Virus record (IMG/VR): IMGVR_UViG_3300033151_000166
Location: 11,677-75,676 of that record
Reading direction: 5' to 3' (one strand)
Source of the DNA: a virus
Length of the DNA: 64,000 bases
A model generated the notes under the pieces. That model saw only the letters and a list, made by a program, of their open reading frames with translations, made no database searches and was not told the DNA's origin. The number at the start of each line of letters is the position of its first letter. The first letter of the stretch is position 1. Positions 9,574-52,700 of the stretch are shown piece after piece. A program made the translations under genes and the position numbers.

Positions 9574-9767
9574 AGCTCATGCTAGTATGTGACTACCATC
9601 AGTTAGTTGTTATCCCTAAGAATGTTATCTGGGATAATGAGATCTTTTGGCAGATCAGTAGTACCATATACCGAGGCGAGTCTGGCTATATTAATATAGA
9701 CCTAGACTCAATGACTATATTCGTCAATGACGATTTATACAAATGTAAGGAGGCACCAGATGCCTAA
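9567..9767 (+). CDS. Hypothetical beta-rich protein (paralogue of 9310)
   Basis: Sequence similarity to the upstream ORF. Confidence 0.7.
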   Translation: MVELMLVCDYHQLVVIPKNVIWDNEIFWQISSTIYRGESGYINIDLDSMTIFVNDDLYKCKEAPDA

Positions 9768-10161
9768 GAGAAGTAGAGAACCAATATTTGAAAGTGAGCT
9801 TGGTTACATTATAACTCACGATGACTTAGGTCATAGACCCAATTTACCTGAGTTACTAACTGAACTAACAGAGATGTGTAGTGCAATGAGTGATGGCATC
9901 GTACAAGCAGATGAGCGTCAAGAGTTGATTGCTGAACTGTTCTACTTTAGTGTTCGTGATGGTCGCCGTGTACTCAGTGTTATGGCCCCTCTAAAGCCTT
10001 GCCCATTCTGTGGTAACGATGATATTGATGGTAAACGTGGTAGTGGCGATGATCGAGACTACTGGTACTATGAGTGTAGTCAATGTAATGTACGTCTACC
10101 ACTATGCCGTACCAATAGTGATGCAATCAATGCCTGGAACACTCGTGTCGACTGCAATTGA
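9760..10161 (+). CDS. Protein with a C-terminal Lar-family (restriction alleviation) Zn ribbon
   Basis: LKPCPFCG...YECSQC...AINAWNTR signature; AAGGAGG RBS before ATG 9760. Confidence 0.8.
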   Translation: MPKRSREPIFESELGYIITHDDLGHRPNLPELLTELTEMCSAMSDGIVQADERQELIAELFYFSVRDGRRVLSVMAPLKPCPFCGNDDIDGKRGSGDDRDYWYYECSQCNVRLPLCRTNSDAINAWNTRVDCN

Positions 10162-17103: not shown

Positions 17104-17679
17104 ATGAATATTACTGATACAGTGGAACGTCAATGGAATTGGCAAAAGACAATGAACTCGGATTTTGATACTATGTACTTGGCAGCGATCGAAGAAGTTG
17201 GTGAGCTCGTAGCAAGCTTTGGATATGCAGACTGGAAAAAGTCAGAGAGAGATACTCAGAACATTCTAGTTGAGTCAGCCGACTTATTTATCTTTGTTAT
17301 CAACTGTGCATACTATGCTAAAGAACCTATTAAAGGTCAACTCAATCCTCATATGACACCTATCGGTGACGATCGCAAATTTGCTCAGACACTCATTAGA
17401 GCACTGTCAGAGAACGATATGGACTATCTAATCAACATTCTATTTACTGAGTACCCAATGGCATATGACTATGTAATGGCTAAGCAAGCACTTAATGCTC
17501 TACGTCAAGATCATGGCTATAAGACTGGTGACTACATTAAAAACTGGGGTACAGATACTAAACCATACGAAGACAATAGAGCTTTATCAGCACTACTTGG
17601 TCGTGGTTTAAACTACAATGGTATGTACTTGGAACTAAACACGCAGTATACTGCAATGATGACTACTAGACTAGGATAA
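17104..17679 (+). CDS. dut: Dimeric all-alpha dUTPase (Campylobacter type; dCTPase activity possible)
   Basis: EEVGEL..YADWKK, VESADLFIF, KQALNALRQDHGYKTGDYIKNW..EDN. Confidence 0.88.
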   Translation: MNITDTVERQWNWQKTMNSDFDTMYLAAIEEVGELVASFGYADWKKSERDTQNILVESADLFIFVINCAYYAKEPIKGQLNPHMTPIGDDRKFAQTLIRALSENDMDYLINILFTEYPMAYDYVMAKQALNALRQDHGYKTGDYIKNWGTDTKPYEDNRALSALLGRGLNYNGMYLELNTQYTAMMTTRLG

Positions 17680-23480: not shown

Positions 23481-23689
23481 TGGATATGTCAGCAGCAGTT
23501 TTAATGGAAGTTATGACTGCTGATATGATGGCTAGAAGAGGGCAGATAAGTCATACTTATACGCGCTTAATGAGTCAACTATCTGGGCTACATGCATCTA
23601 AGGCTAGTCATAATCCCTGGCTATTCACAGTGTTAAACTGTATCACGTATAAGGCAAGCTATGAGCGTAATCTTAATAGAGGGTCCTGA
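23477..23689 (+). CDS. Hypothetical protein
   Basis: ATGA overlap. Confidence 0.55.
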   Translation: MMDMSAAVLMEVMTADMMARRGQISHTYTRLMSQLSGLHASKASHNPWLFTVLNCITYKASYERNLNRGS

Positions 23690-24173
23690 CAAGTGTGGTA
23701 AAACCACGCTAGTCAAGAGTCTAACTACGGCTGGTCTACTTCCAAGAGCAAAGCATCTACCTGATGGTCCTTTTAGACCATTGGTTATAGATGGTGCAGT
23801 GACTGGTTTAGCATCCACTTTCTTATTCTTTGCTAATGAACAACAGTTCTGGCAAGACTATGCAACCACTCCAGGCGACTTCGTCTGTGATCGCGGTATG
23901 ATATCTATGTTAGTCTATCAAGGCTATCTTCTTGGTAACATGCCACCTATTGTTATTCTTAACCTGTATAAGACGATCATGACTGATCTGAACATTACAG
24001 AGATTGTATACTTGACAAATGAACCTTTTGAAGAGTATGATGACAATGACTTATTCGAAGCTTATGGGTACACGCAGATACGTGCCTGTTATGAAGACGC
24101 TATTAAACTTGTAGAGTCTAACTTCGCAGATATAAAAATTACCCGCTTAGATCTTTCTGTAGACACACATTAG
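23661..24173 (+). CDS. Thymidylate/dNMP kinase
   Basis: IEGPDKCGKTT P-loop, VCDRG..S.LVYQ. Confidence 0.85.
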   Translation: MSVILIEGPDKCGKTTLVKSLTTAGLLPRAKHLPDGPFRPLVIDGAVTGLASTFLFFANEQQFWQDYATTPGDFVCDRGMISMLVYQGYLLGNMPPIVILNLYKTIMTDLNITEIVYLTNEPFEEYDDNDLFEAYGYTQIRACYEDAIKLVESNFADIKITRLDLSVDTH

Positions 24174-24265: not shown

Positions 24266-24994
24266 ATGTTATTTATTGATGCTAACAACTATGTTAAAAG
24301 AATTTATCACGGCGGTGGAAATCCTTACACGCTAATTCATGACCTACTCATGAAAAATCTGGACGTACAAATTCAATTTGTATGTGACACTAGTTCTAGT
24401 CGTAAGCCTAGACGAGAGATACACCCTAAGTATAAGTTTGGAAGAGACATGGGTGATGACCCAGTATACTTTGAAGTTATGGAGAACTGTCAGAACATAG
24501 CTAGATGCTTTGACAATGTAACAGCTCTAAACATCATTAACGCTGAGGCTGATGATTACATCGCTAATAGTGTATCAAAAGGTGACACTGTTATCTCTAA
24601 TGACCGCGATCTTTGGCCTTTAGTAAAAGACGGTGTTGAGATACTTCTTAACGCTTCTATGCGTGTAGATGAAGTGGCAATGGTACATAAGTTTGACACG
24701 AAAAATCCAGACCACATTTATCTCTATAAATGCTTAGTTGGTGACACATCAGACAAGATCCCAGGTAAACGTGGATTTGGTAAAGCTGCTTGGGGTAAAT
24801 TATCTGGCTATGAAAGAGATAAAGTATGGGAAGCATTACGTACTGGTGAGGCGCATGACCTAATCAATGAGCAGGTTCTTATGTGTTATAAGCTAGCGAT
24901 GCCTTTACCTATTGGCTCTTACGAAATCGAGCAGCTTGAAAACCTTAATAGAACTTCGGTTCAATATTGTGAAGACAAAGGAATTATCTTATGA
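24266..24994 (+). CDS. 5'-3' exonuclease (FEN/T5 D15/T4 RNase H family)
   Basis: FIDAN, YK.GR, EADDYI, SNDRDL, GDTSDKIPG. Confidence 0.92.
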   Translation: MLFIDANNYVKRIYHGGGNPYTLIHDLLMKNLDVQIQFVCDTSSSRKPRREIHPKYKFGRDMGDDPVYFEVMENCQNIARCFDNVTALNIINAEADDYIANSVSKGDTVISNDRDLWPLVKDGVEILLNASMRVDEVAMVHKFDTKNPDHIYLYKCLVGDTSDKIPGKRGFGKAAWGKLSGYERDKVWEALRTGEAHDLINEQVLMCYKLAMPLPIGSYEIEQLENLNRTSVQYCEDKGIIL

Positions 24995-26898
24995 TCTATA
25001 ACAAATCAAATATACAGGATGCACTTGCCATCCTTAAAGACAGTCCAGAAGAGATCTGGTCTATTGACCTCGAGACATACAACCCTTACGAGAACGCCTG
25101 GTTTATGGAACTTAGCGCTAAGCAAAGACCATTGAACCGTATTGACAGTAAGATCGTGTCACTTCAGCTGGCTACACCATCTGGTATTGAGATGTACTTT
25201 GACTTTGCTCACAAGCAAGAGGGTGAAGACTTACGTCTTGACTATAAGTATCTAGGCGAGATCCTAGATCAATGTAAGTCCAATGACTTGATCGCTCACA
25301 ATGCAGCCTTTGAGTATGGAATGATCTTGCGTCATGGCTACGACTGCCCTCAAGATTACTATGATACTATGATTATGGGAGTACTATACAATGAAAACAT
25401 GGCACAAGGTCTTAAGCCTACGATTAAAACTCGTTTTGGTCACATCATGCCTAGCTACGCTGAGACTGTTGGTGACGGTACTATGGCTGATATCACTGCC
25501 ATCGAAGGTTATGAATATGGTATGTCTGATGCTGATTGGACTCTTAAGCTTTATGACTGGTATGCTGAGCGCATTAGCATGGCCTATTATGAAACTTTTG
25601 AAATGGATACTATTAAAATTATCTCTCACCAGTACGCCGGAGGACAGGCTATCGATACAGACAGACTTGCAGAAATTCAAGCAGAAGATATCTTGGCTCG
25701 TGATGTAATCTTTGACAAGTTTCCTGAACTAAAAGAGATAAACATGAACAGTCCTAAGCAGGTAGCAGTGTTCTTATACGATGAGATGGGTCTTAAACCT
25801 TTTAAAGTCTCAAAGAAAACAGGAGCTCCGTCCACAGACAAAGAGTCACTGTTTGAGTTGGAGTCAGAGTATGGTAAGCAGTATCCTATTGTTAAAGCCT
25901 TCGCTGATATTCGTAAGCTTGAGACAAGATTGAAACTATACTATCGTCCTTACCCTAAGTTGATCTATCCTGATGGACTACTACACTCAGAGATACGCCA
26001 GACTGGTACAGTTACAGGTAGATTTAGTTCTAACTCACCTAACACTCAGCAAGTAGCTAAGCGTGGTGATGGTAAGAAGGTTCGTGATGTATACATACCT
26101 CATAAAGGTCACGACTGTATCGTATGTATTGACTGGTCTCAGATTGAGATGCGTATTGCAGCTCACATGTCTAACGACCCTAAGCTAGTTGATGGATATC
26201 TAACTGAGAAAGATATGCACACACTGTCTGGTACAAACATCTCTGGTCTAGAGTATGATGAGATGGTAGCGCTGGTCAATGAAGAAGACTCAGAACAGAA
26301 AGCTAACCGCCAAAAAGGTAAGACTCTAAACTTTGCATCACTATACCTAGCATCACCAATGCGTCTAGCTAAATTTGATCTATTGGATTGTACAGTGCCA
26401 GAGGCTGAGCTATTCTTATCAGCTCACAAGCTAGGTTATGAGGGATACTTCTATAACTATGTTAATAAAGTATCTCGTGATGTTAATACTAATGGCTATG
26501 TTCAAACACTATTTGGTCGTACTAGACACTTGCCTGATATTAAGTCACCGATCAGAGTTTTAAGAAGTAGTGCTGAGACTCAAGCGTTGAACGCTACGAT
26601 ACAGGGAACAGCTGGAGATATAATGAAGCTTAGCTTAAACACTCTATGGTCTGAGAAACTTCTATTCTTGAAGGACTTCAGATTTATTATGCAGGTTCAT
26701 GATGAATTTGTATTTAGTTGTACTCATGAAGCCGCAGCTGAATTAATGCCTAAGGTCAGAGAGATCATGCAGCGTGTACCTAAAGGTTTCAGAGTACCTA
26801 TCGTTGCTGAGGTATCTATAGGACCGAACTTTGGTGATCAGCGCGAGCTACACGGTGATCTATCACTTGAGAATATCAAGCGCAAACTCTCTTTGTAA
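24991..26898 (+). CDS. DNA polymerase family A with a 3'-5' exonuclease domain
   Basis: IDLET, HNAAFE, TVTGRFSS..PN, DWSQIEMR, GKTLNFASLY, IQGTAGDIMK, QVHDE. Confidence 0.96.
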   Translation: MIYNKSNIQDALAILKDSPEEIWSIDLETYNPYENAWFMELSAKQRPLNRIDSKIVSLQLATPSGIEMYFDFAHKQEGEDLRLDYKYLGEILDQCKSNDLIAHNAAFEYGMILRHGYDCPQDYYDTMIMGVLYNENMAQGLKPTIKTRFGHIMPSYAETVGDGTMADITAIEGYEYGMSDADWTLKLYDWYAERISMAYYETFEMDTIKIISHQYAGGQAIDTDRLAEIQAEDILARDVIFDKFPELKEINMNSPKQVAVFLYDEMGLKPFKVSKKTGAPSTDKESLFELESEYGKQYPIVKAFADIRKLETRLKLYYRPYPKLIYPDGLLHSEIRQTGTVTGRFSSNSPNTQQVAKRGDGKKVRDVYIPHKGHDCIVCIDWSQIEMRIAAHMSNDPKLVDGYLTEKDMHTLSGTNISGLEYDEMVALVNEEDSEQKANRQKGKTLNFASLYLASPMRLAKFDLLDCTVPEAELFLSAHKLGYEGYFYNYVNKVSRDVNTNGYVQTLFGRTRHLPDIKSPIRVLRSSAETQALNATIQGTAGDIMKLSLNTLWSEKLLFLKDFRFIMQVHDEFVFSCTHEAAAELMPKVREIMQRVPKGFRVPIVAEVSIGPNFGDQRELHGDLSLENIKRKLSL

Positions 26899-26900
26899 TT

Positions 26901-26914
26901 ACTTGTGATATAAT
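26901..26914 (+). promoter_or_regulatory. Extended -10 promoter
   Basis: ACTTGTGATATAAT exact. Confidence 0.85.
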
Positions 26915-26931
26915 ATGTTTACAAAGGAAAA

Positions 26932-27777
26932 TTGATGCAAAGAAAATTAAACACGGACTTCACTGAAGTCTATTACAATGTATTGAAACACGTTAAAGAT
27001 GAGGGACAGTGGCAAGACAATGCTAGAACTGGTACCAAAGTTCTAGCTACTTTCGGTTACTCATTCCGTTGGGACATGAACTTCATGCCTCTATCTTCAG
27101 GTCGCAAGATGCACCTAACAACTATGGCTGCTGAAGTAGCTTGGATGCTATCAGGTTCTACATCTATTCAATGGCTTAAGAAGTACACCAAAATCTGGAA
27201 TGCTTTTGCTGATGATAAAGATGAGATACCTACTGCGTATGGTCATCGCTGGAGACACTCTTTTGGTGTTGATCAGATTCAAAACATCATCGATAAGTTA
27301 ACTGAAGACCCAAGCTCTAGACAACAAGTCTTGATGAGCTGGGATGCAAGATGTGATAATGTAGTACCAGCTGCTAACATTCCATGTCCATTCACTGCAG
27401 TGATCGCTATCATTAATGGTAAGTTAAACATACACTTGACACTAAGAAGTAATGATGTATTCTACGGTCTACCTTATGATGTTGGTATGTATACTTTCTT
27501 AGGTCAAGCCTTCGCTAGTGAGTTAGGTGTTGAGGTGGGAGAACTATTCTATAGTATCGCTCACGCTCATATCTATGAGAACCAAATGGATGCAGTTGAA
27601 GAGATGTTAACTGATAAAGTAACTCAAGGACCTCAATATAAAGTTGAGCTTAGAGCTTCAATCACTGATATCATTAGTGATAAGTCTGTATTCGTAAGAC
27701 ACGTGGCTGATATATATGAGCAACTAAAGTATGAACCAGTCGTCTTAGCTAACAAGCTACCAAAAGTAGTAGAGTAA
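26932..27777 (+). CDS. thyA: Thymidylate synthase-family enzyme (Asp at the specificity position; possible dCMP methylase)
   Basis: RTGT, YGHRWR, DQI, PSSRQ, IPC, RSNDVFYGLPYD, HIYENQ. Confidence 0.9.
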   Translation: MMQRKLNTDFTEVYYNVLKHVKDEGQWQDNARTGTKVLATFGYSFRWDMNFMPLSSGRKMHLTTMAAEVAWMLSGSTSIQWLKKYTKIWNAFADDKDEIPTAYGHRWRHSFGVDQIQNIIDKLTEDPSSRQQVLMSWDARCDNVVPAANIPCPFTAVIAIINGKLNIHLTLRSNDVFYGLPYDVGMYTFLGQAFASELGVEVGELFYSIAHAHIYENQMDAVEEMLTDKVTQGPQYKVELRASITDIISDKSVFVRHVADIYEQLKYEPVVLANKLPKVVE

Positions 27778-28184
27778 TGAAGAAGCGGTGGACGCCAGAG
27801 TTCTGGATGGAAGTGGCTGAACTGTTTAGCAGTCAGTCTACGTGTAACAAAGCCCAGGTTGGTTGTATCCTTACTAAAGATAAGAAAATGATCGCAGCTG
27901 GTGTTAATGGCACGACCCATGGTGATGACAACTGTTGTGAAGATGACAGTGGACACACAGAACATTGGAGAGTTCACCACGCTGAAATGAATGCCTTGGC
28001 AAAGGTAGGTACCAATGCTAAAGGCTCTGTGGCATACGTCACACTAGCACCTTGCTATGAGTGTGCTAAGAACTTAATACTATTCGGTGTCACCAAAGTA
28101 TACTACGGCAGTGTCAAAGAAGAGTATGAAGATGTTCTTATATATTTAGAGTCAATGGGTGTTGACACTGAGAAGGTTGATTAA
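27777..28184 (+). CDS. dCMP deaminase
   Basis: S.C...QVGC, HAEMNAL, TLAPCYECAK. Confidence 0.92.
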   Translation: MKKRWTPEFWMEVAELFSSQSTCNKAQVGCILTKDKKMIAAGVNGTTHGDDNCCEDDSGHTEHWRVHHAEMNALAKVGTNAKGSVAYVTLAPCYECAKNLILFGVTKVYYGSVKEEYEDVLIYLESMGVDTEKVD

Positions 28185-28185
28185 G

Positions 28186-28503
28186 ATGGCATTAGAAGGT
28201 TTAAACGTAGGCTTCAACATGAAGACCGTGCGTGCTGATAGAAAAGAGACGGCAGCTGAGGAAGACAAAGGTAAGATCAAACTTAATTTTAAAACAGTGG
28301 CTCGTAAGGGTGGACCTGTTACTATAGAGTCTGAAACTATTACGTGGTGTGAAAACCGTGATGAGTCTGATGTATCTGAACTATGGAAGAGATTGTTTAT
28401 TAGAAAAGAGCATACCACTGAAATGGCTAAGCAGTACAAAGATGTTTGTCACTACCTAACTCAAAAGTATGGTTGTGACCTACCTAAAAGGAGTCATAGA
28501 TGA
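28186..28503 (+). CDS. Hypothetical protein
   Basis: Start refined to 28186. Confidence 0.75.
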   Translation: MALEGLNVGFNMKTVRADRKETAAEEDKGKIKLNFKTVARKGGPVTIESETITWCENRDESDVSELWKRLFIRKEHTTEMAKQYKDVCHYLTQKYGCDLPKRSHR

Positions 28504-28895
28504 CAGGCATCTTATTACTATCAGAGAACAATTGTTTTGCTGATGAGGATGGTAAAGTAAGTTGGGGACCAGCAGCTGATAAGCTATGGGTTAGACGTAT
28601 GATCTTTCAAAAGAAAGTCTTTGTTGGTTATCATACTTGGAAGTCTATACAGTCTCACTACTCACTACTTGATCTACCCTCGTCGTGGCAGTTTGTAAAC
28701 CCAATGGACGCTACAATTCATTTTGGTGGACCAAAGTCTTTCAAGAGTTTCCCACCAGATAGATTTATTATACACAAAACTCGTACACCTATTGCTGGTA
28801 TGTTCTTTGATATGAACTGGCTAGAAGATAACTACGAGCTAACAGACTCAAGCGACTGTCCTGAGTATACGGAGTTGATCTATGCCAAAAAATGA
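28500..28895 (+). CDS. Divergent dihydrofolate reductase
   Basis: GKVSW..AADKLWVRR...VFVGYHTWKSI...HFGG..FF aligns with DHFR motifs. Confidence 0.75.
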   Translation: MTGILLLSENNCFADEDGKVSWGPAADKLWVRRMIFQKKVFVGYHTWKSIQSHYSLLDLPSSWQFVNPMDATIHFGGPKSFKSFPPDRFIIHKTRTPIAGMFFDMNWLEDNYELTDSSDCPEYTELIYAKK

Positions 28896-29325
28896 TGGTA
28901 AGTTAACTGAGCGTATATTCGATGCTCAGTTCAAAGATGAGACCGCCAGAGATATAAACTTTGTGTACTATAAATTTATCGACAGTCATGCTGCTCGTAA
29001 CTTGGTACAAAACCAGCCTGCTGATAGACTAATAATCTATATGGGAACTGTAATACTTACTGAGATCAAATCTTCTTATGACCCAATGCGTTTCCCACTG
29101 AAGAACATCTCTAAGAAACAAATTGGTACTGGAAGACGCTGGGTAGCAGCTGGTACTAAGTCTATGTTTATTATCCATAGACTACAAACAAATGAGTTCT
29201 TCTTCGTACCTCTAACTGAGGTTCTAAAGAAGATGGACAGTGGTCATAAGAGTTGGAAGTGGTCTGAGCTAGAGTACTTCAAACACGAGGCAACCTATGC
29301 GTTTTGGAAACGTTATGGTAATTAA
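28882..29325 (+). CDS. PD-(D/E)xK nuclease, RecU-like Holliday junction resolvase
   Basis: PADRL...TEIKSS..RFPLKNISKKQ. Confidence 0.8.
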   Translation: MPKNDGKLTERIFDAQFKDETARDINFVYYKFIDSHAARNLVQNQPADRLIIYMGTVILTEIKSSYDPMRFPLKNISKKQIGTGRRWVAAGTKSMFIIHRLQTNEFFFVPLTEVLKKMDSGHKSWKWSELEYFKHEATYAFWKRYGN

Positions 29326-37386: not shown

Positions 37387-40300
37387 TTAGTAAGCAGCCA
37401 TCGGTATAGAGTATTGCTGTACAACACCAGCTAAATCAATTAGTAAGATAAATTGCCACTCAGCTGAGTAGAATCCTGATGGCGGTGTTCTACCAATACT
37501 ACCTGCCATGATAGCTTTATAACCAGTACCTCTTGGTATCTTAGGTAGTAAGTTATCTTGTATTGGACCTCTAGGGTCGTTGTAATTATCACCGTAGGCA
37601 AAGATTTTCTCATACAGTATTTCAGTTGTGTAGTCAGTCTTTAATAAGAACGTGGCTCTAACATGACCTATGGTTGAATAGGATAGGTTAGGGTGATTCC
37701 AATCCAGTCTCTTAATAAAGTTTCTAATATTGGTACTCTCTTGCATTGGTCTTGTGATAGAGTCACCAACAATTTCTGGTATCAAAGCATTAACTTTACC
37801 AGCTTTTCTATAGCCTGCTACACCTGAAGAGACAGCTAGTACAGTGTTAGACACACTTAGTCTAGCACTCTGAGTTGTTGGAGCTTCAGTGTAAGCTAGA
37901 GCTACTAGATCTAAAGATGCCTCATTATAGATATTGTTGTCATAGTTAGTAACTGCCAATAATGGTCCAGGTAAATTTTCAGCTCTAGCAAACCTAGGAA
38001 GATACTCAACTCCAGTAGTCCTATCAAAGAACACATGTGTATTGGTACCATAAATTAATACAGCTGTATTGTCTTTACCACTGAACTGCCAGTAGATTAT
38101 GTTAAGGAAGTTTTTAGGAGTACTATAAACTGGAGAGTTAATTACACCTGTAGAAAAGGCCCAACTACAAGTGGTATTATTTAATTCGTCATTGTCTAAC
38201 CAACTAAAATTAATTAGATTCAAAGCGTCACCTGAAGACAGAGCATTAGATGAGAACTTATAGTTGTCCTTAGTAACACCACTAGTTGGCATAGAAGCAT
38301 TAATACTAGATTGAACCGCTGCTGGGTCACCGTAGTAAGTATCATAACGAGAGTTGTATACATAGAATTCAACACCACCATCAGCTTTAACAAGACCTAT
38401 TGCAGTGAGTCCTGAAGGCCATTGCTTAGGCTTAACTGACACAAAGATATCTACATAGCCAGATGTAAACTGAGACAAGCCGTTATAAAAATCAATAGCA
38501 TCAGAGTTGATAGTCAATGTTCCATCTAGATTAAGACCTACTACTACAGTTGTTCTAACATAAGTTGTTGGAGCCTCGCTATCAGGGTAGTGATAGATAT
38601 CTACTTCAAAAGCACTGGTCATGTCATTGCCGTTAACTGTTTGAGCTAGCTTAGAATTGTTAGTCCAAGGATACCAGATAACACCATTAGCTTTGTGCAA
38701 TGACACAAGACCATAAGCAAGTGTCTGATAACCAAAGTTATTTAGTTTAACATCAACCCAGTCCTCAGTGCTTGGAAGATCTGGTATATAACTAGTTGAA
38801 GCTGCCCAACAAATGGCTGCTCCATTCTTCAGCATAACTGCAGCTAGACTAGAGTTAGCGTAGTATAGGGAGAGTAAACTCCCAGCTACTAAATTGGTAT
38901 GTCCATCATCAACTGGCGCTAGAGCAGCTAGACTATCAGTACAATATGCTACACCTTCAGGTGTTAGACCAGAGATAAGACTGTTACTAGTAGCCCAGAT
39001 CTTATCTAACTTAATACCTGGAGGTGTAAGTCTTACAACGGCTTCTGTATCTGAGTCTCTAATCATATACCATTCTTTGTTTCTAGACACGTAGTAGCCA
39101 CCGACTCTGTAACCACGAATAGCTTCTATTGGATCAGGCACATCAAAGTTAGGGAACTCATCGTAAACAGTATCTGTAGACATAAAAGACCAACTATAGA
39201 TAGGGTTCTGACCTAGGTAAGAAAACCAAGATCTATAAGGACTTCTAACAAAACTTTTTGCAGCCCCACTAAGTCTACCTATCATTCTATCACTAGCATC
39301 AATAGGTGAGCTAGCTGAACAGTCCATTGTTGCCACCTCAGACAGTGGGAATTTACTATAGAACTGATTAGACTTACAGGTCATTTGAATTGTAGCACCA
39401 AATCTAGTGAATCCGTAACGCGCTGCGTGCAGTGTAATCTCTGAATTACAATGTAAATGAGCGACAGCTGTGGTACTTAAAACTGTGTCTGTGAGTATTT
39501 GATTTGTTATACGCTGTATATCAACCAAGTCGTAATTTCCTATAATAGCTGTATGCTCATAGTTGGTTTCCATTCTATGACCGACCAATGACCTATTGCC
39601 ATCTAGAACATAATCAGGTATAGCAGGCAGTGCTACATTGGATAAGAAAGTACCGTTAACATATAGATCAGCGGTGTCATCACCAAGAGCATTAGCAAAT
39701 ACGACTGTCATTGAGTCGTCTATCTCACTTCTATATGCCTGCATCAAACCAAACTTAGTGTATCTAGTAAGATCTAAATGAGTATCCAGAGTACCTGCTG
39801 GTATCTCGCTTAGATTATATTGACCACCAAGTTCCCAAGGACAACCTAGTTCTGAAGGGGTATTACTAGGGCTCAGACTAAGATCATATGGTTCAGTGTT
39901 TCTATTCAAGTAGAAGTACTGATCTCTACCAGTTCGCCACATTAGATCTCCGAACATCCATTCGCCACCTAACCAGCTTGCAGTGCCAATGTGTTGATGA
40001 GTAGTAAGGCGTCTATGTAGTGTTTGTATACCTGAAGACTGCCAAGAACCACCTCTAGCGCTTATGTATCTAGCAGTTATAGGCCAATTTTGTGAGTCGT
40101 AATACATGTAACCCATTTTAGTTTCATCTAGTTTAGCTTGGAAAGTAACAAAGCTAGCGCTAGTTTGAACCTCGCCATAAGCATACACGTAGTATCGATG
40201 TACGTTTAATGATGAGACCATCTCAGGTAATAACCATTTAGGGTCTTCTCTAAATTTAAGTACCTCAGTTATAGGGAAACCAGTGAAGTTCATCTGTAGG

Positions 40301-43300
40301 AAGTTAACTTGAATACTGTTAGCAAAGTCCTCATGACTAGGTACGTAGCCAGAGCCCTCGTTTTGAAGCTTAAAACCTGATTGAGTTAGAACAACTTCAC
40401 CATTCATATACCAAACAGCACTTCCATGTATGATAGACAGTATTAGTTCTACTGAGTCACCCGGAGTATAAGGAATATTAACTCTTTTAGTTGCAGTGCC
40501 ATAACCAGTACTACCAAAACCAAATCTAAGCTCATTATTTTTAGTACCTACAAAGGCTGATGAGTTACCGTTGTCATAGTAGTCCCATATACTTATAGTC
40601 TGGAAGCCAAATATCCAGCCAGAAGAACCATTAGGTAGGTGTACTATTGTTCTCATACCAAAGTTCTCATAACGTAGTTGTTCTTTAACAGGTGCTACAC
40701 CATCTTGTGTGAATGGATTACCATAGAACCGAGGTCTAGAACCCCAAGTAGACTGAGGCGCAGTTCTCGGTTCCATATTGGTATTCCAAAACTCAGCTTG
40801 GTTCTTAGCACTAGCTTTATAAGAATTGTCATAGCTTACTTGAATGTCTTTATTGATCTTTAGTATCTCATACTTCTCACCGAAATATGAATTACAAGTC
40901 ATGTGACTTTTAAGATAAGCTTGGATACCAGAAAGAACATCTATCTCTGAGCTACCTGACATATGACAAATAGCTACATTAGGTACAGCGTGTACAGTTG
41001 CACTACCAGCGTTGAACTTAGCTCTAGGTTTATGGTCATTCTCATACTTCAGTACATAACGATCAGCATCAGACAGTGTTCTATCAAAGAACCTTACACT
41101 GTCCCAGTTACCACCGTGCATTTCAAAGCTATCCATTAGTACCATAGACCCAGTTAAGGTGTCTCGCTCTAAAGTAAGATCACCATCTATATAGACTTTA
41201 AAGTGACTATTTTCAAATTCAATAGTGACATGATAAAAGCCTTGCTCTCTAGGAATATCTGATGTTGGGTCTAGCTCAGGGTGTACACAAGGTGACATTT
41301 CTATATGATCAGCCCATAACTTATAGACAGTGTCAGCTCCGGAATAATCAGCCGCCTGAGTCACAGCACAAACGACTGAGACTTGAGAGGTTGGGCTTGC
41401 TTGACCAAAAGAATTAGGTATTAACTCAAATTTCATACCTTGGTATTCTGAATCTCCACTAGCATGTTGTGCCTCTATAACTATGGGACTGCCCCAGGTA
41501 TTCTCAGCGTCACCTATAGGTGGGCACCAAGCTGAATTAGACACATGAAAAGACATGGCCCATAGAGTATTAGAAGTTAACCAAGCTGCTACGTCAGGTG
41601 AACCATAACCGAGAGTTCCTGCTTGATCAAATCTACCAACTCTATGCCCTTCTACACCATTAGCGGAGCGAAAGATAGGTACAAAACCTTGAGCACCTAT
41701 AGTTCCGTTAGGCCAAAAACCTAGACAAGAGCCGTCCTCGAAGATATCAAATATCTGATCAGTGTTAAAAGGTAAAGGATATCTCCAACCAGCGACTGTT
41801 AAGTCACTACTAGAGCCAACTAGATGAGCCTTAGGTCCAGGAATAGACTGACCTTTAGCTGTAAATCTATACACTTGTGGGTACAGTGTGATAAAAGGAG
41901 TGTAGGCTCTAATGTTTATAGCTTCGCCCTGTAGGTGCGCACTACCATATACTAGATAGAAACCACCTTCTACGTCTAGAGTAGCTGTACCTTGTAGGTT
42001 ACCGAAAGCTTTAGGTCTAGCATGTGAAGTAGCTGAGGCACTAAGATGAGACTCTGTAGCACCAAGGTGTTTAGCTAGAACACCGTTTCTTGTACTTTGA
42101 GTTATCTCTTGGTCATAGTACTGTACAAACTGTATACTAATAGCATTAGCAGAGCTATGAATTGGATGACTAACTGCAGTGCCATTTGAAGCTGGTGCTC
42201 TAGCGGTCAATGTTACACTAGCTTTGATCACACCATCAATACGTATAATGTATGTGGCTTGAGTACCATTAAGAATCTTTTGAACCTCTAGTAGATACGT
42301 ATTGCCAACGCCATTATGTGGTATGTTACCAAAGTTATATGAAGTACCGTTAAGACGCATACTCATACCAACGTAAGTTGAAGCTAGAGTACCATTTATA
42401 TAGATGTACTCGCCAGTAGGGTGGTAACACTGATACATAGTTCCACCAGAAGCATTTAGTCTGATACTAGCAAAGTAAGACCAACTAACATATTTAGGGA
42501 AGAACGTGTATGATGTACGACCAAACCTAGCATAGCCAGAGGTAGGTCGCATTGCTGTACCCTCAGGTAAAACTACGTAGGTCCAAGAACCCGTAGAGTA
42601 GTTATGCGTTAAACCAGTGACACTATCAAGTGTGTTATTGTCAAAATCAAGGTTGTGAATTAACTTAGGTCCAAAATGTGTAGCACCAGCATCAGCAAAA
42701 ACTGTAGCACCACCACTTAGAATAGACTCGCCCCACTCTCTATAGCTACCGGCTTCAGCATCAGCAAATAGATTAGCTTGCTGACTCAAGTGTGACGTAC
42801 CGAGATAGTTGTACCAAGTATAGACAACGTCTAAAGTAGCTGAAGCACTAAGATCAAAAGTAAAGTACCATAGACCACGAATAAACGACAGTACATCTAA
42901 AGTAGCTGAAGCAGTGAGCGGTGCGTTAAAATATAAATAACCTCTGATAGTAGGCACTATATTGACAGTTGCTGTCTCACTCAACACGGAGTCAAAGTAC
43001 AAGTACCCACGTATAATAGGCACAACATCAGGTAAGTAGGCTGAGCTACTTAGTATACTAGAACCTAGTACGTCACCTCTAAGAGTAACTGCGGTAGTCG
43101 CTTTACCATAAAGTCTACCTTCACCTAGCGTTGGTCCAGTAGTGAAGCTGGTAGCATTACTTATAGCCTCACCAGCCAATCTAGTTCTAGAATCTTGTTC
43201 AACTGTTACTCTTATGTTAATAGGTAAGATCTCAGAAAAACCACTTGTACTATAAGGTCTTACTCCAAAATAGTACTGACCTATAGCCGATAAGAAACTA

Positions 43301-43953
43301 CCATCATTATGAGCTAGACTAGCCATAGTTGGATCATAAGCTTCTAGACGTTCTTGAATCCAATAAGGTTCGCCATTCTCAGTAGTCTCTATACCTGGAT
43401 CATCGTCCTCGTGTACTAGATAAGTATTATCGTCAGGTGGTGTATTAGTAGCTGCATACAACTGAATGACTGTATCAATCCAAGGGTCATCCCAGTAAGC
43501 ATCTGTTTGAATAGTTTCAACACCAACTAGTAAACCAGTAGTATCAAAAGGCTCACTGTTAATGTACAGTTGACCATCAGCGGGTGCTAGAACATACTCG
43601 TAAGTACCTGTTTTTATAGGGAAGGTTGAACTTAATTCTCTACCTAGATTTGACTCTGCTAGTACAGCTGCTGAACCAGCTAAGTCAGCTTGCTTGATTT
43701 TATTAAGAGACGCTTGAACAGTAGCTGAACCAACTAGTACAGTGCTGAAGTTAGGTCTTGCAACTGTACTCGCTGAACCACTAAGTCTAGCTGCGACTAT
43801 CTTTAACAGTAGTGTACCAGAACCCTGTAATTCTGAAGAGCTACGAAGTAATGGCGTGGCTATACTAGTTACTAAAGCTGAACCAGATATAATGATGATA
43901 GAGCTGTCTTCAGACCACCCTTGGGCCGCATAGCCAGTTACTACGTAATTCAA
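37387..43953 (-). CDS. 2188-aa tail fibre / receptor-binding protein (beta-strand repeats, LamG-like domains, RCC1-like C-terminal half)
   Basis: LSGSA repeats, three 22-aa IRG(Y/L)..F repeats, LamG-like YIDG/YMNG/YVNG and RFFDRTLS motifs, LxxNG.V repeats. Confidence 0.75.
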   Translation of the reverse strand: MNYVVTGYAAQGWSEDSSIIIISGSALVTSIATPLLRSSSELQGSGTLLLKIVAARLSGSASTVARPNFSTVLVGSATVQASLNKIKQADLAGSAAVLAESNLGRELSSTFPIKTGTYEYVLAPADGQLYINSEPFDTTGLLVGVETIQTDAYWDDPWIDTVIQLYAATNTPPDDNTYLVHEDDDPGIETTENGEPYWIQERLEAYDPTMASLAHNDGSFLSAIGQYYFGVRPYSTSGFSEILPINIRVTVEQDSRTRLAGEAISNATSFTTGPTLGEGRLYGKATTAVTLRGDVLGSSILSSSAYLPDVVPIIRGYLYFDSVLSETATVNIVPTIRGYLYFNAPLTASATLDVLSFIRGLWYFTFDLSASATLDVVYTWYNYLGTSHLSQQANLFADAEAGSYREWGESILSGGATVFADAGATHFGPKLIHNLDFDNNTLDSVTGLTHNYSTGSWTYVVLPEGTAMRPTSGYARFGRTSYTFFPKYVSWSYFASIRLNASGGTMYQCYHPTGEYIYINGTLASTYVGMSMRLNGTSYNFGNIPHNGVGNTYLLEVQKILNGTQATYIIRIDGVIKASVTLTARAPASNGTAVSHPIHSSANAISIQFVQYYDQEITQSTRNGVLAKHLGATESHLSASATSHARPKAFGNLQGTATLDVEGGFYLVYGSAHLQGEAINIRAYTPFITLYPQVYRFTAKGQSIPGPKAHLVGSSSDLTVAGWRYPLPFNTDQIFDIFEDGSCLGFWPNGTIGAQGFVPIFRSANGVEGHRVGRFDQAGTLGYGSPDVAAWLTSNTLWAMSFHVSNSAWCPPIGDAENTWGSPIVIEAQHASGDSEYQGMKFELIPNSFGQASPTSQVSVVCAVTQAADYSGADTVYKLWADHIEMSPCVHPELDPTSDIPREQGFYHVTIEFENSHFKVYIDGDLTLERDTLTGSMVLMDSFEMHGGNWDSVRFFDRTLSDADRYVLKYENDHKPRAKFNAGSATVHAVPNVAICHMSGSSEIDVLSGIQAYLKSHMTCNSYFGEKYEILKINKDIQVSYDNSYKASAKNQAEFWNTNMEPRTAPQSTWGSRPRFYGNPFTQDGVAPVKEQLRYENFGMRTIVHLPNGSSGWIFGFQTISIWDYYDNGNSSAFVGTKNNELRFGFGSTGYGTATKRVNIPYTPGDSVELILSIIHGSAVWYMNGEVVLTQSGFKLQNEGSGYVPSHEDFANSIQVNFLQMNFTGFPITEVLKFREDPKWLLPEMVSSLNVHRYYVYAYGEVQTSASFVTFQAKLDETKMGYMYYDSQNWPITARYISARGGSWQSSGIQTLHRRLTTHQHIGTASWLGGEWMFGDLMWRTGRDQYFYLNRNTEPYDLSLSPSNTPSELGCPWELGGQYNLSEIPAGTLDTHLDLTRYTKFGLMQAYRSEIDDSMTVVFANALGDDTADLYVNGTFLSNVALPAIPDYVLDGNRSLVGHRMETNYEHTAIIGNYDLVDIQRITNQILTDTVLSTTAVAHLHCNSEITLHAARYGFTRFGATIQMTCKSNQFYSKFPLSEVATMDCSASSPIDASDRMIGRLSGAAKSFVRSPYRSWFSYLGQNPIYSWSFMSTDTVYDEFPNFDVPDPIEAIRGYRVGGYYVSRNKEWYMIRDSDTEAVVRLTPPGIKLDKIWATSNSLISGLTPEGVAYCTDSLAALAPVDDGHTNLVAGSLLSLYYANSSLAAVMLKNGAAICWAASTSYIPDLPSTEDWVDVKLNNFGYQTLAYGLVSLHKANGVIWYPWTNNSKLAQTVNGNDMTSAFEVDIYHYPDSEAPTTYVRTTVVVGLNLDGTLTINSDAIDFYNGLSQFTSGYVDIFVSVKPKQWPSGLTAIGLVKADGGVEFYVYNSRYDTYYGDPAAVQSSINASMPTSGVTKDNYKFSSNALSSGDALNLINFSWLDNDELNNTTCSWAFSTGVINSPVYSTPKNFLNIIYWQFSGKDNTAVLIYGTNTHVFFDRTTGVEYLPRFARAENLPGPLLAVTNYDNNIYNEASLDLVALAYTEAPTTQSARLSVSNTVLAVSSGVAGYRKAGKVNALIPEIVGDSITRPMQESTNIRNFIKRLDWNHPNLSYSTIGHVRATFLLKTDYTTEILYEKIFAYGDNYNDPRGPIQDNLLPKIPRGTGYKAIMAGSIGRTPPSGFYSAEWQFILLIDLAGVVQQYSIPMAAY

Positions 43954-49206: not shown

Positions 49207-49780
49207 CTGATACTCCTACAACGTACATGTTAGAATACATCAGAGGTTTATAGACTTCCGTAAACTGCAACTTCATTTCGTAGACGGTGTTAGTTTTATG
49301 AATCTCTTTTATAGACTCGCCTAGAAATAAAAGTTTTCTAGGTACAACTGTGTCCGCACGTACAACTACTGGTGTATCAGAAGCTATCTGACTTATTGGT
49401 ATTCTAACACCTATGTCAAGTAGATGATCTGTGCCATCGGTAACATAAGAAACTTCACGGTCCATGAACTGATTGTAGTACTGGTACTCAAAGATATAAG
49501 TAATATAGTAAGTGACTGGTCCTATAGGATTAACTCGCTTACTGATATTAAAACCAGGTCCCACTGGACTTAAGATGTATAAGTCATTAGGTTCTTGTAA
49601 GATTGCCGTTTCTATGGCATTCTTTAACTCGTCAGATACTAGACCAAAGTTAATAGCCCACTTAGTTAAAGGCAAACCTACTCTAGAATTATGAACAGTG
49701 TTATTCACCATTACAGGTTTAAAGCCTGTAACAATATCTAGACTAAGGTCATCATAAAGATACTTGTGTAAGACAGTCAT
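49181..49780 (-). CDS. Distal tail protein (positional call)
   Basis: Directly after the tape measure gene; ends in a LQFTEV motif. Confidence 0.6.
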   Translation of the reverse strand: MTVLHKYLYDDLSLDIVTGFKPVMVNNTVHNSRVGLPLTKWAINFGLVSDELKNAIETAILQEPNDLYILSPVGPGFNISKRVNPIGPVTYYITYIFEYQYYNQFMDREVSYVTDGTDHLLDIGVRIPISQIASDTPVVVRADTVVPRKLLFLGESIKEIHKTNTVYEMKLQFTEVYKPLMYSNMYVVGVSDVNHTACS

Positions 49781-52700
49781 TAGCTATACTCCTCAAATAC
49801 TCTCTTAACACCATCAGCTATCTGGTCCATGTGAGCTTCTATAGAGTCAATGCCTACACTAGCACTAACTCCTATATTCACGTTAATGCCATCGCGGGCA
49901 CTAGATGGTAACCCCGTGGTTACACTCCCTCCACCTTGAACCTCTTGATTAATACCGGCATTTAAGTTCTCGAACCAAGCAAGTCCCTTATCTCTAACGA
50001 TTTCTTTTCTTACCACGTACTCACCAGCTTCTAGCATGTACTGATACTTATCACCACCACCATACTCACCAGGAGCGACTGCTTGCCCAGCTGAAGCATA
50101 ACTAGGTAGAGGAGTAATCGGTCCACCTTTACTTCTGTATCCTGTATTGGTTGCAGTATACGTTGCTGCTTGAATCGTAGCAACCGCTCTATAAGCAGCT
50201 TGTGCTATTTGATTAGCCATGATCTCCATAGTATTACCAACGTAAGCCATGCTGCCTAGGCTATTGATAGCAGCGTAAGAAGAAATCTGTATGCCTTGTG
50301 CCAAGGCTAACATAGCTGGACCAATCTGAGCGGCTTCACCAAGACTAACTGTAACTGCTTTGACACTAGTAGTTAATGAACCAGCACCTACTGATAATGA
50401 CTTAGCAGCTGTTTCAGTCTCTGTACCTACTTTGCTCATCTCAAGCATAGCATCACCAAGAAGCGCAACGTTCTGAACTACTGGTGATAGGTCTGCTTTA
50501 GTATTGCTTCTAACGATCTCTTCTATTGATAGGGTAACAGTTTCTAGTTTAGTTACCATGCCTTTAGTTGCAGTGACTGAGGCGTCAAATGATAGCTTGA
50601 TAGCCTTGTCTATAGACTTCATTTGTTTACTAACTGTAGTCTGAGTATCTGTAAAGATCTTAGTAAACTGACCACCAACATCTGTACCTAGTGTCTGTAC
50701 TGCTTGCTTCATAGCATCACTACTAAGAGCTGCTGAATACATGGCCGCTACGTTCTCTACAATCAAGTTCTGATTAATCTGTAGTTTAGATAGAGAGTCA
50801 TTAAGTTGTGTCTCTAAAGCTGCTTTGTCAATAGCGATCTTAAAGACACCTGCTTCTTTAGCTGCTCTAACATCATCTAACCAAAGGTTTAATCCATCAG
50901 TTACAGTCTTAGTTACATTCACTGCCATGTTATGTAGGTTCTCTTCTAGTTGAACCTTAGCTTGATCAGCTCTAGTATTAGCATCCTCAACTGATCTGGT
51001 GATCTGAGTGTTAAGCTTTTGAACCGCGTCCTCAGCATGTACTAGAAGACCTTTACCCGCTTCGTCATACTGAACAGCCATAGCTGTTAAGTTCTCTTGA
51101 TAAGCTTTGTTACTAGCATCTATAGCATCATTAGTCTTATTGATTAGACTTTCCATAGCTCTGTCAATACTAGTTTCAAGTTTAGCCGTGGCTCTTTCAA
51201 CACTAGTTTCTAAGGCTTGACCAGCACGCTCTGCTTTTGTATCAAGATCCTCAAAACCTTGATCTTTGTTTCTGTTGGCCTCATCTATACCACGTATAAA
51301 GGCTTTACCAGCATCAATAAAAGAATCCTCTAGTTGTTGTTTTAAAGTATCTTTAGAGTCAAGAGCCGCTTGTCTAATGTCTGCAGCTCCATCAAGCATA
51401 GCTGTGTTCCAGTCAGTACGAGCACGAGCATCATTCTCTATAAGCTTAGCTTCCGATCTCTCAATAGAAGTAGTAGCATTGTTTATAAAGTCTTGTGTCT
51501 TAGTAACAAGATCAGCTTGAAGCTGCTCTATCTTGATAGCAAGCTCTTGTCTAGCGTAATCTCTAGAGTCTTCAGCATCATCTGTCTGTCTGTCTTTACT
51601 TAAGTTAAGATCATTGATAGCATTCTGGATACTAACAGCTAAGTCATAAGCAGCATCTTGAATTCTAATTCTTAAGTCTTGACCTGCATAAGCCATCTGT
51701 CTGACTAGATCATCCATAGCATACTGCATGTTAAGTTTCAAGTCTTCACTAGCTCTTCTAGTCTTAGTTGCTAAGTCTTCACCAGCTCTTGCTAGCTTGA
51801 GTTGTAGATCTTCACCAGCTCTTGCTACGCCAGTTGCAAGGTCTTCTTGAGAACGTGTAAGACTAAGTATCAAATCCTCGTTAGCTTGTTTGTTACTAAG
51901 TACAAGATCTTCCATACCACGATTGAATGCGGTTGTAATATCTAATGACCCACGTTGTTGAGCTATGAGTAGATCTTCTAGAGCTCTTTGGAAACCTTCA
52001 TTAGCACTTTCTTGAGAACGTCTTCTAGCTTCTTCAGCATCCTCCTCAGCTTCTTTGGCTTTGATAGCTGCTTCTTGCAGAGCAAAAGAAAGGTTTGAAC
52101 TTGCAGTTGCTAGTGCTGACTGTAGTTGATAACCAGCTTCACGTACTTTGATATCGAACTGAATCATAGTACCTTCAAGATCAAATAGCGCACCTTCCAT
52201 GCCACCTTGAGCCTCTAGTATAACACCAGCAGTTGTGCTAATTCTAACTTCACCTTGACCAGCACCAGCTAAAGCTGCAGCCAGCTCATCAGAAGATAGA
52301 CCAGAACCAATAATAGAACTACTAGTGGTTACACCAGTACTTGGATTTGAAACTTGATCAGCAAAATATTCAGGACTAGTTAACGCTTGTTGTATATCAA
52401 ATCCTGAACCACCGAATGCACGATTAATAGCTTGCTCTAGCATAGTGTCAATTACACTTTCAGAGTTACTATCTATAAAGTTACTATAAGCATCCGTGAA
52501 ATCTTGATTGACTGAGCCATCGTCATTGTATACTTGACCACCAACTTTCTTATAAGCATCTTTATAGGCCTGCTTAGTAATGTCTTCTTGACTCTTGAGT
52601 ATTGCAATCTGTTGTTTCACTGCTGAGGTGTTAGCGATCAGTGCAGCTTTGTTAGCATCAAATGCTAGAGACAAGTCATTAAGATTATCAGATACTTTAA

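Follow-up and report, generated by a model that had tools for sequence, protein, structure and literature searches.

Here we describe a nucleotide-metabolism cassette of an uncultured phage, known from vent and sediment metagenomes, in which a gene for a thymidylate synthase (TS) homologue (bases 26935-27777) probably encodes a deoxycytidine monophosphate (dCMP) C5-methyltransferase (5-methyl-dCMP synthase), such as phage Xp12 has, accompanied by genes whose predicted products would lead to virion DNA containing 5-methylcytosine (5mC). The DNA analysed, hereafter the window, is a stretch of 64,000 nucleotides corresponding to bases 11677-75676 of the 75,676-base IMG/VR virus record IMGVR_UViG_3300033151_000166, which is rated complete; the genome is thus of about 75 kilobases (kb), with 40% GC. 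The components of this reading deserve different degrees of confidence: dCMP is very probably the substrate of the enzyme, its product is quite likely a methyl derivative, and we lean towards a virion DNA in which cytosine is largely 5mC.

A first-pass annotation, made from the letters of the window, had described the gene as a ThyA homologue with an Asn-to-Asp switch. The homology is real, as the protein matches 127 thymidylate synthase chains of the PDB at E<=1e-3, but the start is likely the ATG at 26935, preceded at 6 nucleotides by AAAGGAA, and not the TTG at 26932; in the database the protein is entered with 280 residues. Residues are numbered here as in E. coli ThyA, through a MAFFT alignment and through phmmer alignments to solved thymidylate synthases. 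Direct reading of the DNA gives A-A-N-I-P-C-P at 27370-27390 and R-S-N-D-V-F-Y-G-L-P-Y-D at 27445-27480, which in the phmmer alignments face PCH and RS(A/C)D.FLG.PFN of the solved enzymes. The Asp codon GAT was found exactly where it had been placed, at the position of Asn177, and so was the change of PCH to PCP, with Cys146 kept. The canonical ThyA determinants Asn177 and His147 are consequently absent, replaced by Asp and Pro (N177D, H147P); the further changes with respect to E. coli ThyA are L143N, Q165L, C168N, F176Y, W83F and R127Q, while R21, E58, W80, Y94, R126, R166, S167, D169, H207 and Y209 are kept along with the cysteine.

These substitutions are neither a sequencing error nor a chance variant, because they are kept in relatives and unchanged in independent contigs: Asp177 is present in 72/72 metagenomic relatives (P0002-P0073, at 33-69% identity), among which Asn143 and Pro147 are nearly invariant, and contigs from a sediment metagenome of an independent study span 27168-27858 with 0 differences. 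Within 26900-28900, identical sequence is present in contigs of a hydrothermal vent metagenome, the probable source, and of the other study's sediment metagenome, and short identical pieces occur in one marine run and in another sediment run.

The residues concerned are those in which the substrate and the chemistry of this superfamily are written. At position 177, Asn goes with uracil and Asp with cytosine, and positions 177 and 147 are those most strongly tied to cytosine-modified viral contigs (PMC8670742). Asn177 is the main determinant of specificity for deoxyuridine monophosphate (dUMP), and its mutation to Asp gives a dCMP methylase (Hardy & Nalivaika 1992; Liu & Santi 1992). Hydroxymethylases of dCMP or dUMP (T4 gp42, SPO1 gp29, MilA) carry Asp or Glu at 143, and 5-hydroxy-dCMP synthases the change D169N (PMC13326640). 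Our alignment confirms the rules for 143 and 169, since T4 gp42 (D143, T147, D177) and SPO1 gp29 (D143, N147, N177) have Asp at 143 and RB69 gp48 (E143, T147, N169, D177) has both Glu143 and Asn169. In the same alignment the Xp12 enzyme shows N143, P147, L165, D169, Y176 and D177, and the window protein has this very pattern (N143, C146, P147, L165, D169, Y176, D177), as have the TS homologues of Donnerlittchen, Tedan, RDJL Phi 2 and JWX. The signature can be written N143-[IV]-P-C-P147 plus P-Y176-D177. Furthermore, the window protein, Xp12 and these four share a full-length C-terminus, P-x-V-[VI]-E, resembling the P-V-A-I tail with which ThyA shuts its active site over folate, whereas T4 gp42 and RB69 gp48 end earlier (alignment; PMC5175136).

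Altogether, the dCMP methylase interpretation of the first-pass annotation gains support from Asp177, from the changed residue 147 and from the whole Xp12 signature with its tail, as well as from the lack of an acidic residue at 143 (Asn) and of the D169N change (Asp169 is kept). A 5-hydroxy-dCMP synthase of the RB69 gp48 or DLP3 gp80 type is ruled out by the retained D169. A closed active site and a dihydrofolate reductase (DHFR) partner would fit reductive methylation, and the additional fixed changes (L143N, H147P, Q165L, F176Y, W83F, R127Q) probably optimise the cytosine chemistry. The Xp12 TS homologue and 5/7 metaviromic D177 enzymes made 5-methyldeoxycytidine (5mdC) in vivo (10.1101/2024.12.05.627091).

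Neither ThyX, nor a second ThyA, nor a C5 DNA methyltransferase was found in the genome (no match to PF00145), which leaves the D177 enzyme as the sole folate-dependent methylase of pyrimidines that the phage brings along. DNA-level C5 methylation, another conceivable source of 5mC, is ruled out by the same lack of a PF00145 match.

The phylogeny against ThyA, T4 gp42 and Xp12 that the first-pass annotation had proposed was answered by a maximum-likelihood tree of 42 rows (LG+C20), and a quick tree of 70 rows gives the same picture. A branch supported at 100/100 splits canonical ThyA, including E. coli, T5, RB69 td and metagenomic N177 proteins, from all the non-canonical proteins, so that the window protein falls outside canonical ThyA, but beside and not inside the Xp12 clade. 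The non-canonical group is made up of four lineages whose branching order the tree leaves unresolved: the clade of the window protein (97/99, 11 rows), a clade of Xp12, RDJL, JWX and Tedan (94/97), a third D177 clade, and the long-branched hydroxymethylases and hydroxylases. About 45 metagenomic members belong to the window's clade at 45-69% identity. Two of its proteins (P0019 and P0021, of 432-434 residues) have an added HNH_3 domain (PF13392), as if a homing endonuclease had been inserted into the methylase gene or fused to it.

The cassette is compact, its genes following one another without gaps between TS homologue and nuclease. The deaminase ATG overlaps the TS stop as TAATG, the deaminase being translationally coupled to the TS homologue, and the 131-residue open reading frame (ORF) that follows further on overlaps both of its neighbours. 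This arrangement is not peculiar to the window. Two complete viral genomes of 74-75 kb with terminal repeats (G001 and G002) are collinear with it from the SNF2 helicase to SbcC, a stretch including TS, deaminase, small ORF, DHFR-like ORF and nuclease. The deaminase lies 3' of TS, directly or one gene on, in 9/9 related IMG/VR loci, and likewise in Xp12, Donnerlittchen, Tedan, RDJL Phi 2 and JWX. The related loci were found by a search with the family alignment; a scan with the single protein led to distant loci only, and no cultured phage matched the operon by megablast.

The 131-residue ORF had been called a DHFR in the first-pass annotation. Homology to DHFR stands, by fold and by profile, although the protein is highly divergent and truncated. 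It has no Pfam match even at E 10 and no PHROG match; the NCBIfam type 3 DHFR model reaches it at E 0.0065 over residues 19-51 only, BLASTP against the Xp12 and Donnerlittchen DHFRs was not significant, and a word-indexed search for relatives found only the protein itself. An AF2 model built from a four-sequence alignment with homologues of related viral contigs has a mean confidence (pLDDT) of 85.4, and its top 50 Foldseek matches in the PDB are all DHFR, with E down to 5e-9 and TM scores of 0.70-0.72. In turn, a search of 1.8 billion proteins with the family profile reaches genuine PF00186 proteins, with E values from 2e-8 to 1e-4, and the proteins so reached score 83-197 bits on PF00186. 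The equivalents of W22, D27, G43, T46 and GG95-96 of DHFR are kept. From the modelled fold and the remote profile, we thus take it to be a DHFR homologue. The family of this DHFR-fold protein has long (about 150 residues) and short (about 130 residues) forms, the short ones, those of the window and of L029, being without the betaD-alphaE segment; in every form Arg57 is missing and Thr113 is replaced by His, and only 16 matches at E<=1e-10 exist in the 1.8 billion proteins.

These features bring forward the idea that the window clade is a distinct cytosine-modifying TS lineage with a minimal DHFR-fold partner of 130 residues, devoid of Arg57 and betaD-alphaE. This partner could be a functional DHFR_1-type reductase, the smallest one, perhaps with altered use of cofactor or substrate, or else a subunit that handles folate without reducing it; if so, the TS homologue could differ from that of Xp12 in chemistry or product. 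We consider this idea doubtful.

It is unlikely, in our opinion, that the enzyme is a dCMP hydroxymethylase like T4 gp42, leading to 5-hydroxymethylcytosine DNA that enzymes from unannotated ORFs might decorate further. Asp177 is common to T4 gp42, the hydroxymethylase clade and the window clade arise from one unresolved node, Leu143, the proposed water excluder of ThyA, is here a polar Asn, and many ORFs of the phage are unannotated. Nevertheless, the verified Xp12 methylase also has Asn143, the aligned hydroxymethylases have Asp or Glu at 143 and Thr or Asn, not Pro, at 147, and the C-terminal tail is full-length and TS-like, that of T4 gp42 and RB69 gp48 being shorter. Moreover, hydroxymethylases release tetrahydrofolate and need no DHFR (PMC5175136), as the first-pass annotation had rightly pointed out, and a DHFR homologue is retained here in an operon whose genome holds no TS homologue other than the D177 enzyme. 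No glycosyltransferase or similar domain was found among the ORFs scanned.

[quoted passage not shown] The closest structure is the dCMP deaminase of cyanophage S-TIM5 (4P9C, 7e-22), with HAE and PCxxC motifs aligned, and identity to the Xp12 deaminase is 29%. It looks like a monophosphate-type enzyme, more similar to 4P9C than to the PBCV-1 protein 7FH4, the structural neighbour of the 5mC-selective deaminase mSCD-B5, which needs triphosphates (10.1101/2024.12.05.627091). In metaviromes, dCMP deaminase genes on cytosine-modified contigs have a TS homologue beside them in 70% of cases, those on unmodified contigs in 6%; most of the TS homologues so linked carry the dCMP-type residue, many of the linked deaminases prefer 5mC, and DNA_pol_A is among the top domains beside pairs of deaminase and TS(D177) (Yang et al. 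2024, 10.1101/2024.12.05.627091). The window deaminase has in common with the 5mC-selective deaminases (mSCD) that it is a PF00383 protein in cis with a D177 TS homologue. It is predicted to turn 5-methyl-dC nucleotides into dT nucleotides, and/or dCMP into dUMP, and we slightly favour activity on 5-methyl-dC nucleotides.

The pairing of methylase and deaminase admits still another reading, namely an alternative route to thymidylate (dTMP) and nothing else, by way of dCMP, 5-methyl-dCMP and dTMP, with ordinary cytosine in the virion. In its favour, translational coupling links the two genes, a TS specific for dUMP is missing from the phage, and there is no proven dCTPase, the pyrophosphatase being of a dUTPase family. 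We nonetheless judge this reading improbable: the TS(D177)-deaminase pair occurs on 104/149 modified versus 17/277 unmodified metaviromic contigs, Xp12 and PaMx74, with the same cassette, have 5mC for all cytosine (10.1101/2024.12.05.627091), and, unless 5mC itself is wanted, going by way of 5-methyl-dCMP offers no evident gain compared with an ordinary ThyA. The first-pass annotation had set modified DNA and an alternative dTMP route against each other; they are not exclusive, since in the published model, proposed for phages with 5mC in place of cytosine, 5mC enters the DNA while a share of the 5-methyl-dC nucleotides is turned by deaminases into dT nucleotides (10.1101/2024.12.05.627091).

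Finally, it is highly improbable that automatic annotation is right and that we are dealing with an ordinary thymidylate synthase, converting dUMP to dTMP, in which unusual substitutions are tolerated, fed by the dCMP deaminase, for although it passes the equivalog cut-off of NCBIfam TIGR03284 "thymidylate synthase" (141 versus 108 bits, the Xp12 enzyme scoring just under it with 99.6 bits), its public relatives are all named thymidylate synthase and the gene content fits the textbook deaminase-TS-DHFR order, stricter NCBIfam equivalog cut-offs are missed by far (166 versus 327 bits), the protein lies outside the 100/100-supported ThyA clade, D177, P147 and N143 are fixed clade-wide, and the replaced residue is the main dUMP determinant, whose mutation to Asp yields the dCMP methylases cited above.

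Two genes upstream of the cassette would complete the pathway. The first-pass annotation had described an all-alpha dUTPase with the fold of the T4 dCTPase, and the family assignment holds, with 25.1 bits against a cut-off of 22.9 and a match at 3e-7 to the C. jejuni dUTPase 1W2Y, but similarity in sequence to the T4 enzyme was not found; indeed, no similarity to any T4 or Xp12 protein was detectable. The NCBIfam dUTPase model matches at 3e-15, under its cut-off, and the protein also matches PHROG 173, an NTP pyrophosphohydrolase family. The gene is conserved in both collinear complete relatives, and neither MazG nor PRA-PH was found in the genome, so that this is the only enzyme of its superfamily there and a candidate dUTP/dCTP-ase. 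As for the deoxynucleoside monophosphate (dNMP) kinase that had been placed nearby, a PHROG match backs it, but its assignment remains weak: the Pfam matches (AAA_28 and Thymidylate_kin) are under cut-off, the NCBIfam dTMP kinase match (1.6e-4) covers the P-loop only, thymidylate kinases of the PDB are reached at E 0.25, and an AF2 model from three sequences has a pLDDT of 45. The gene is conserved at the equivalent position in L028 and L029.

We therefore arrive at the following scheme for the 5-methyl-dCMP synthase and its partners. The TS homologue would use Cys146 and 5,10-methylene-tetrahydrofolate, with Asp177 picking cytosine over uracil, and the TS-like closing C-terminus would permit hydride transfer, so that a methyl product and dihydrofolate would be released, the latter being recycled by the mini-DHFR. 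The P-loop kinase of the phage and the nucleoside diphosphate kinase of the host would convert 5-methyl-dCMP into the triphosphate, which the phage family A polymerase (PolA) would incorporate, with 5mC replacing most or all cytosine and conferring resistance to many restriction enzymes. The pyrophosphatase of the dimeric dUTPase family would supply dCMP and at the same time remove dCTP and dUTP, keeping dC and dU out of the DNA. The coupled deaminase would turn part of the 5-methyl-dC nucleotide pool into dT nucleotides, and no dUMP-specific thymidylate synthase would then be needed.

Several points weigh against this scheme. In the published assays, 2/7 D177 enzymes yielded no 5mdC (10.1101/2024.12.05.627091). 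The window protein forms a separate clade and is not nested among verified methylases, so its assignment rests on the shared signature and not on clade membership; identity to the enzymes of the Xp12 group is only about 35%, and the window's clade has no identifiably assayed member. The deaminase is far closer to the ordinary dCMP deaminase 4P9C than to PBCV-1 7FH4 (1e-5), and selectivity for 5mC is polyphyletic and follows no published sequence rule (10.1101/2024.12.05.627091). The mini-DHFR has Pro or Ala in place of Arg57 and His for T113 and, compared with the L028 and L030 homologues, lacks about 20 residues (betaD-alphaE) of the subdomain that binds the adenosine of NADPH; it may be inactive or have some other role. 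The pyrophosphatase family (dUTPase_2) differs from the PRA-PH type usual beside such cassettes, and the enzyme may be a plain dUTPase. Besides, many early ORFs are unannotated, and further modifying enzymes might be among them.

The composition of the whole genome (G000) adds little to this balance. Palindromes containing C or G are not avoided overall (observed/expected ratio 0.95-0.96), which is weakly consistent with protected DNA but too unspecific to count either way. CpG stands at 0.55 of expectation, with a slight TG/CA excess, and CTAG (508) and AGCT (711) are unusually frequent; the CpG depletion is likewise too unspecific to count for or against modification.

If the scheme is true, a family of phages of about 75 kb from vents and sediments has 5-methylcytosine for cytosine, which bears on their escape from restriction, on their attack by modification-dependent nucleases and on how their DNA behaves when sequenced or assayed for methylation. 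Because the enzyme passes TIGR03284, annotation pipelines would wrongly name it thymidylate synthase. The clade also adds to the sequence diversity of natural dCMP methylases and of the deaminases coupled to them, which are sought as 5mC-selective reagents, and puts on offer for testing an unusually small DHFR-fold protein; the pathway being known, the gain is incremental.

The coordinates of the genes and residues discussed are collected below.

Table. Features of the predicted cytosine-methylation cassette and associated genes; positions refer to the window unless a locus is named.
Feature	Position	Strand	Basis
All-alpha (dimeric dUTPase family) dNTP pyrophosphatase	17104..17679	+	PF08761, 25.1 bits (cut-off 22.9)
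P-loop kinase, probable dNMP (thymidylate-kinase-like) kinase	23661..24173	+	PHROG 761 thymidylate kinase, 1.9e-10
Family A DNA polymerase (PolA), directly 5' of TS homologue	24991..26898	+	PF00476, 3e-82
TS homologue, predicted dCMP C5-methylase (5-methyl-dCMP synthase)	26935..27777	+	PF00303, E 1.2e-56, 192 bits, residues 13-247; signature; trees
Asn143-equivalent codon	27376-27378	+	
Catalytic Cys codon, TGT	27385-27387	+	
Pro147-equivalent codon, CCA	27388-27390	+	
Asp177-equivalent codon, GAT	27478-27480	+	
Zinc-dependent dCMP deaminase family protein	27777..28184	+	PF00383, 1.8e-21; PF14437, 2.5e-12
Conserved 105-residue ORF, function not assigned, between deaminase and DHFR	28186..28503	+	Homologues at equivalent position in L028 and L029
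Highly divergent, shortened (131 residues) DHFR homologue	28500..28895	+	AF2 fold; family profile
RecU-like Holliday junction resolvase or nuclease, last gene of cassette	28882..29325	+	PF03838, 2e-6; PHROG 843, 4e-14
DHFR-fold family member	L029:9083-9484		
DHFR-fold family member	L028:8534-8989		
DHFR-fold family member	L030:7762-8220		

The plus strand of the window between 17 and 32.5 kb constitutes a module for replication and nucleotide metabolism, which besides the cassette contains primase-helicase, SNF2 helicase, sigma factor, flap endonuclease, PolA and SbcCD. The 105-residue ORF, whose start was reset to ATG 28186 from comparison with the N-termini of its homologues, is 27% identical to the homologue of L028 and 50% to that of L029, and gave no Pfam, PHROG or Atlas lead; at this site, L029 has an additional ORF of 130 residues. 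In the gap of 36 nucleotides between the PolA stop and the TS start, an extended -10-like element, TGATATAAT (26906-26914), is followed by AAAGGAA, and the TS-deaminase-DHFR genes could have an internal promoter there; a generic promoter and terminator scan of 22-33 kb gave sites not above those of shuffled sequence. Elsewhere in the window, an ORF at 9727-10161 has a Lar-like restriction alleviation domain (PF14354, 5e-9) and would be a second, protein-based anti-restriction device of the phage. The structural module, on the minus strand, includes giant ORFs at 37387-43953 and 49780-62325 (2188 and 4181 residues), and the structural ORFs adjoining them have almost no Pfam matches.

Among the known systems, the engineered E. 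coli N177D and L. casei N229D thymidylate synthases offer the simplest likeness, with the same one-residue switch from dUMP enzyme to dCMP methylase; unlike them, the natural enzyme has the further fixed changes listed above. T4 (gp42, gp56 dCTPase, gp1 dNMP kinase, Cd deaminase and Frd DHFR) follows the same logic of cytosine replacement at the mononucleotide level, with a TS-superfamily enzyme carrying Asp at the specificity site, a pyrophosphatase, a kinase and a deaminase. Nevertheless, gp42 has Asp143, Thr147 and a shorter C-terminus and makes a hydroxymethyl product and tetrahydrofolate, and T4, unlike the window phage, keeps a true thymidylate synthase (td).

Much closer is the MetaGPA/IMG-VR set of TS(N177D) and deaminase pairs (PMC8670742; 10.1101/2024.12.05.627091), for which IMG/VR was mined by the rule that a single viral contig has both PF00383 and PF00303, the latter with Asp at N177. 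The window conforms to this rule and has the PolA neighbour in common with the set.

The best matches in the cultured-phage collection are cassettes of the Xp12 type (Bosavirus, Mesyanzhinovviridae), with relatives in Pamexvirus/Bradleyvirinae (AXL1, PaMx74, Donnerlittchen), which have the same signature and C-terminus; DHFR is present in 8/8 pamexviruses, and that of AXL1 is functional (PMC9206674). In its order TS-deaminase-DHFR-nuclease the window matches Xp12, Donnerlittchen and RDJL Phi 2, and in Donnerlittchen the gene after DHFR is also a "putative nuclease". The full order in these three phages is pyrophosphatase-TS-deaminase-DHFR, and JWX and Tedan have an unannotated ORF of about 150 residues in that slot. 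The differences are nonetheless considerable. The window TS is 34-36% identical to the Xp12 type and belongs to its own well-supported clade; the window has the extra 105-residue ORF; its DHFR is far more divergent and shorter; and its pyrophosphatase, an enzyme of the dimeric-dUTPase type, is encoded 9 kb away, the Xp12 type having a PRA-PH or Cof-type enzyme directly 5' of TS. The genomes differ as well: AXL1 has 67% GC, and AXL1 and Xp12 are of 64 kb. The TS(N177D)-deaminase pathway, with 5mC DNA and dT derived from 5-methyl-dC nucleotides, was already published in 2021-2024, and this locus is a further, fairly distant case of it, made less ordinary by its separate clade, its minimal DHFR-fold protein, the conserved unassigned ORF in the cassette and its different type of pyrophosphatase.

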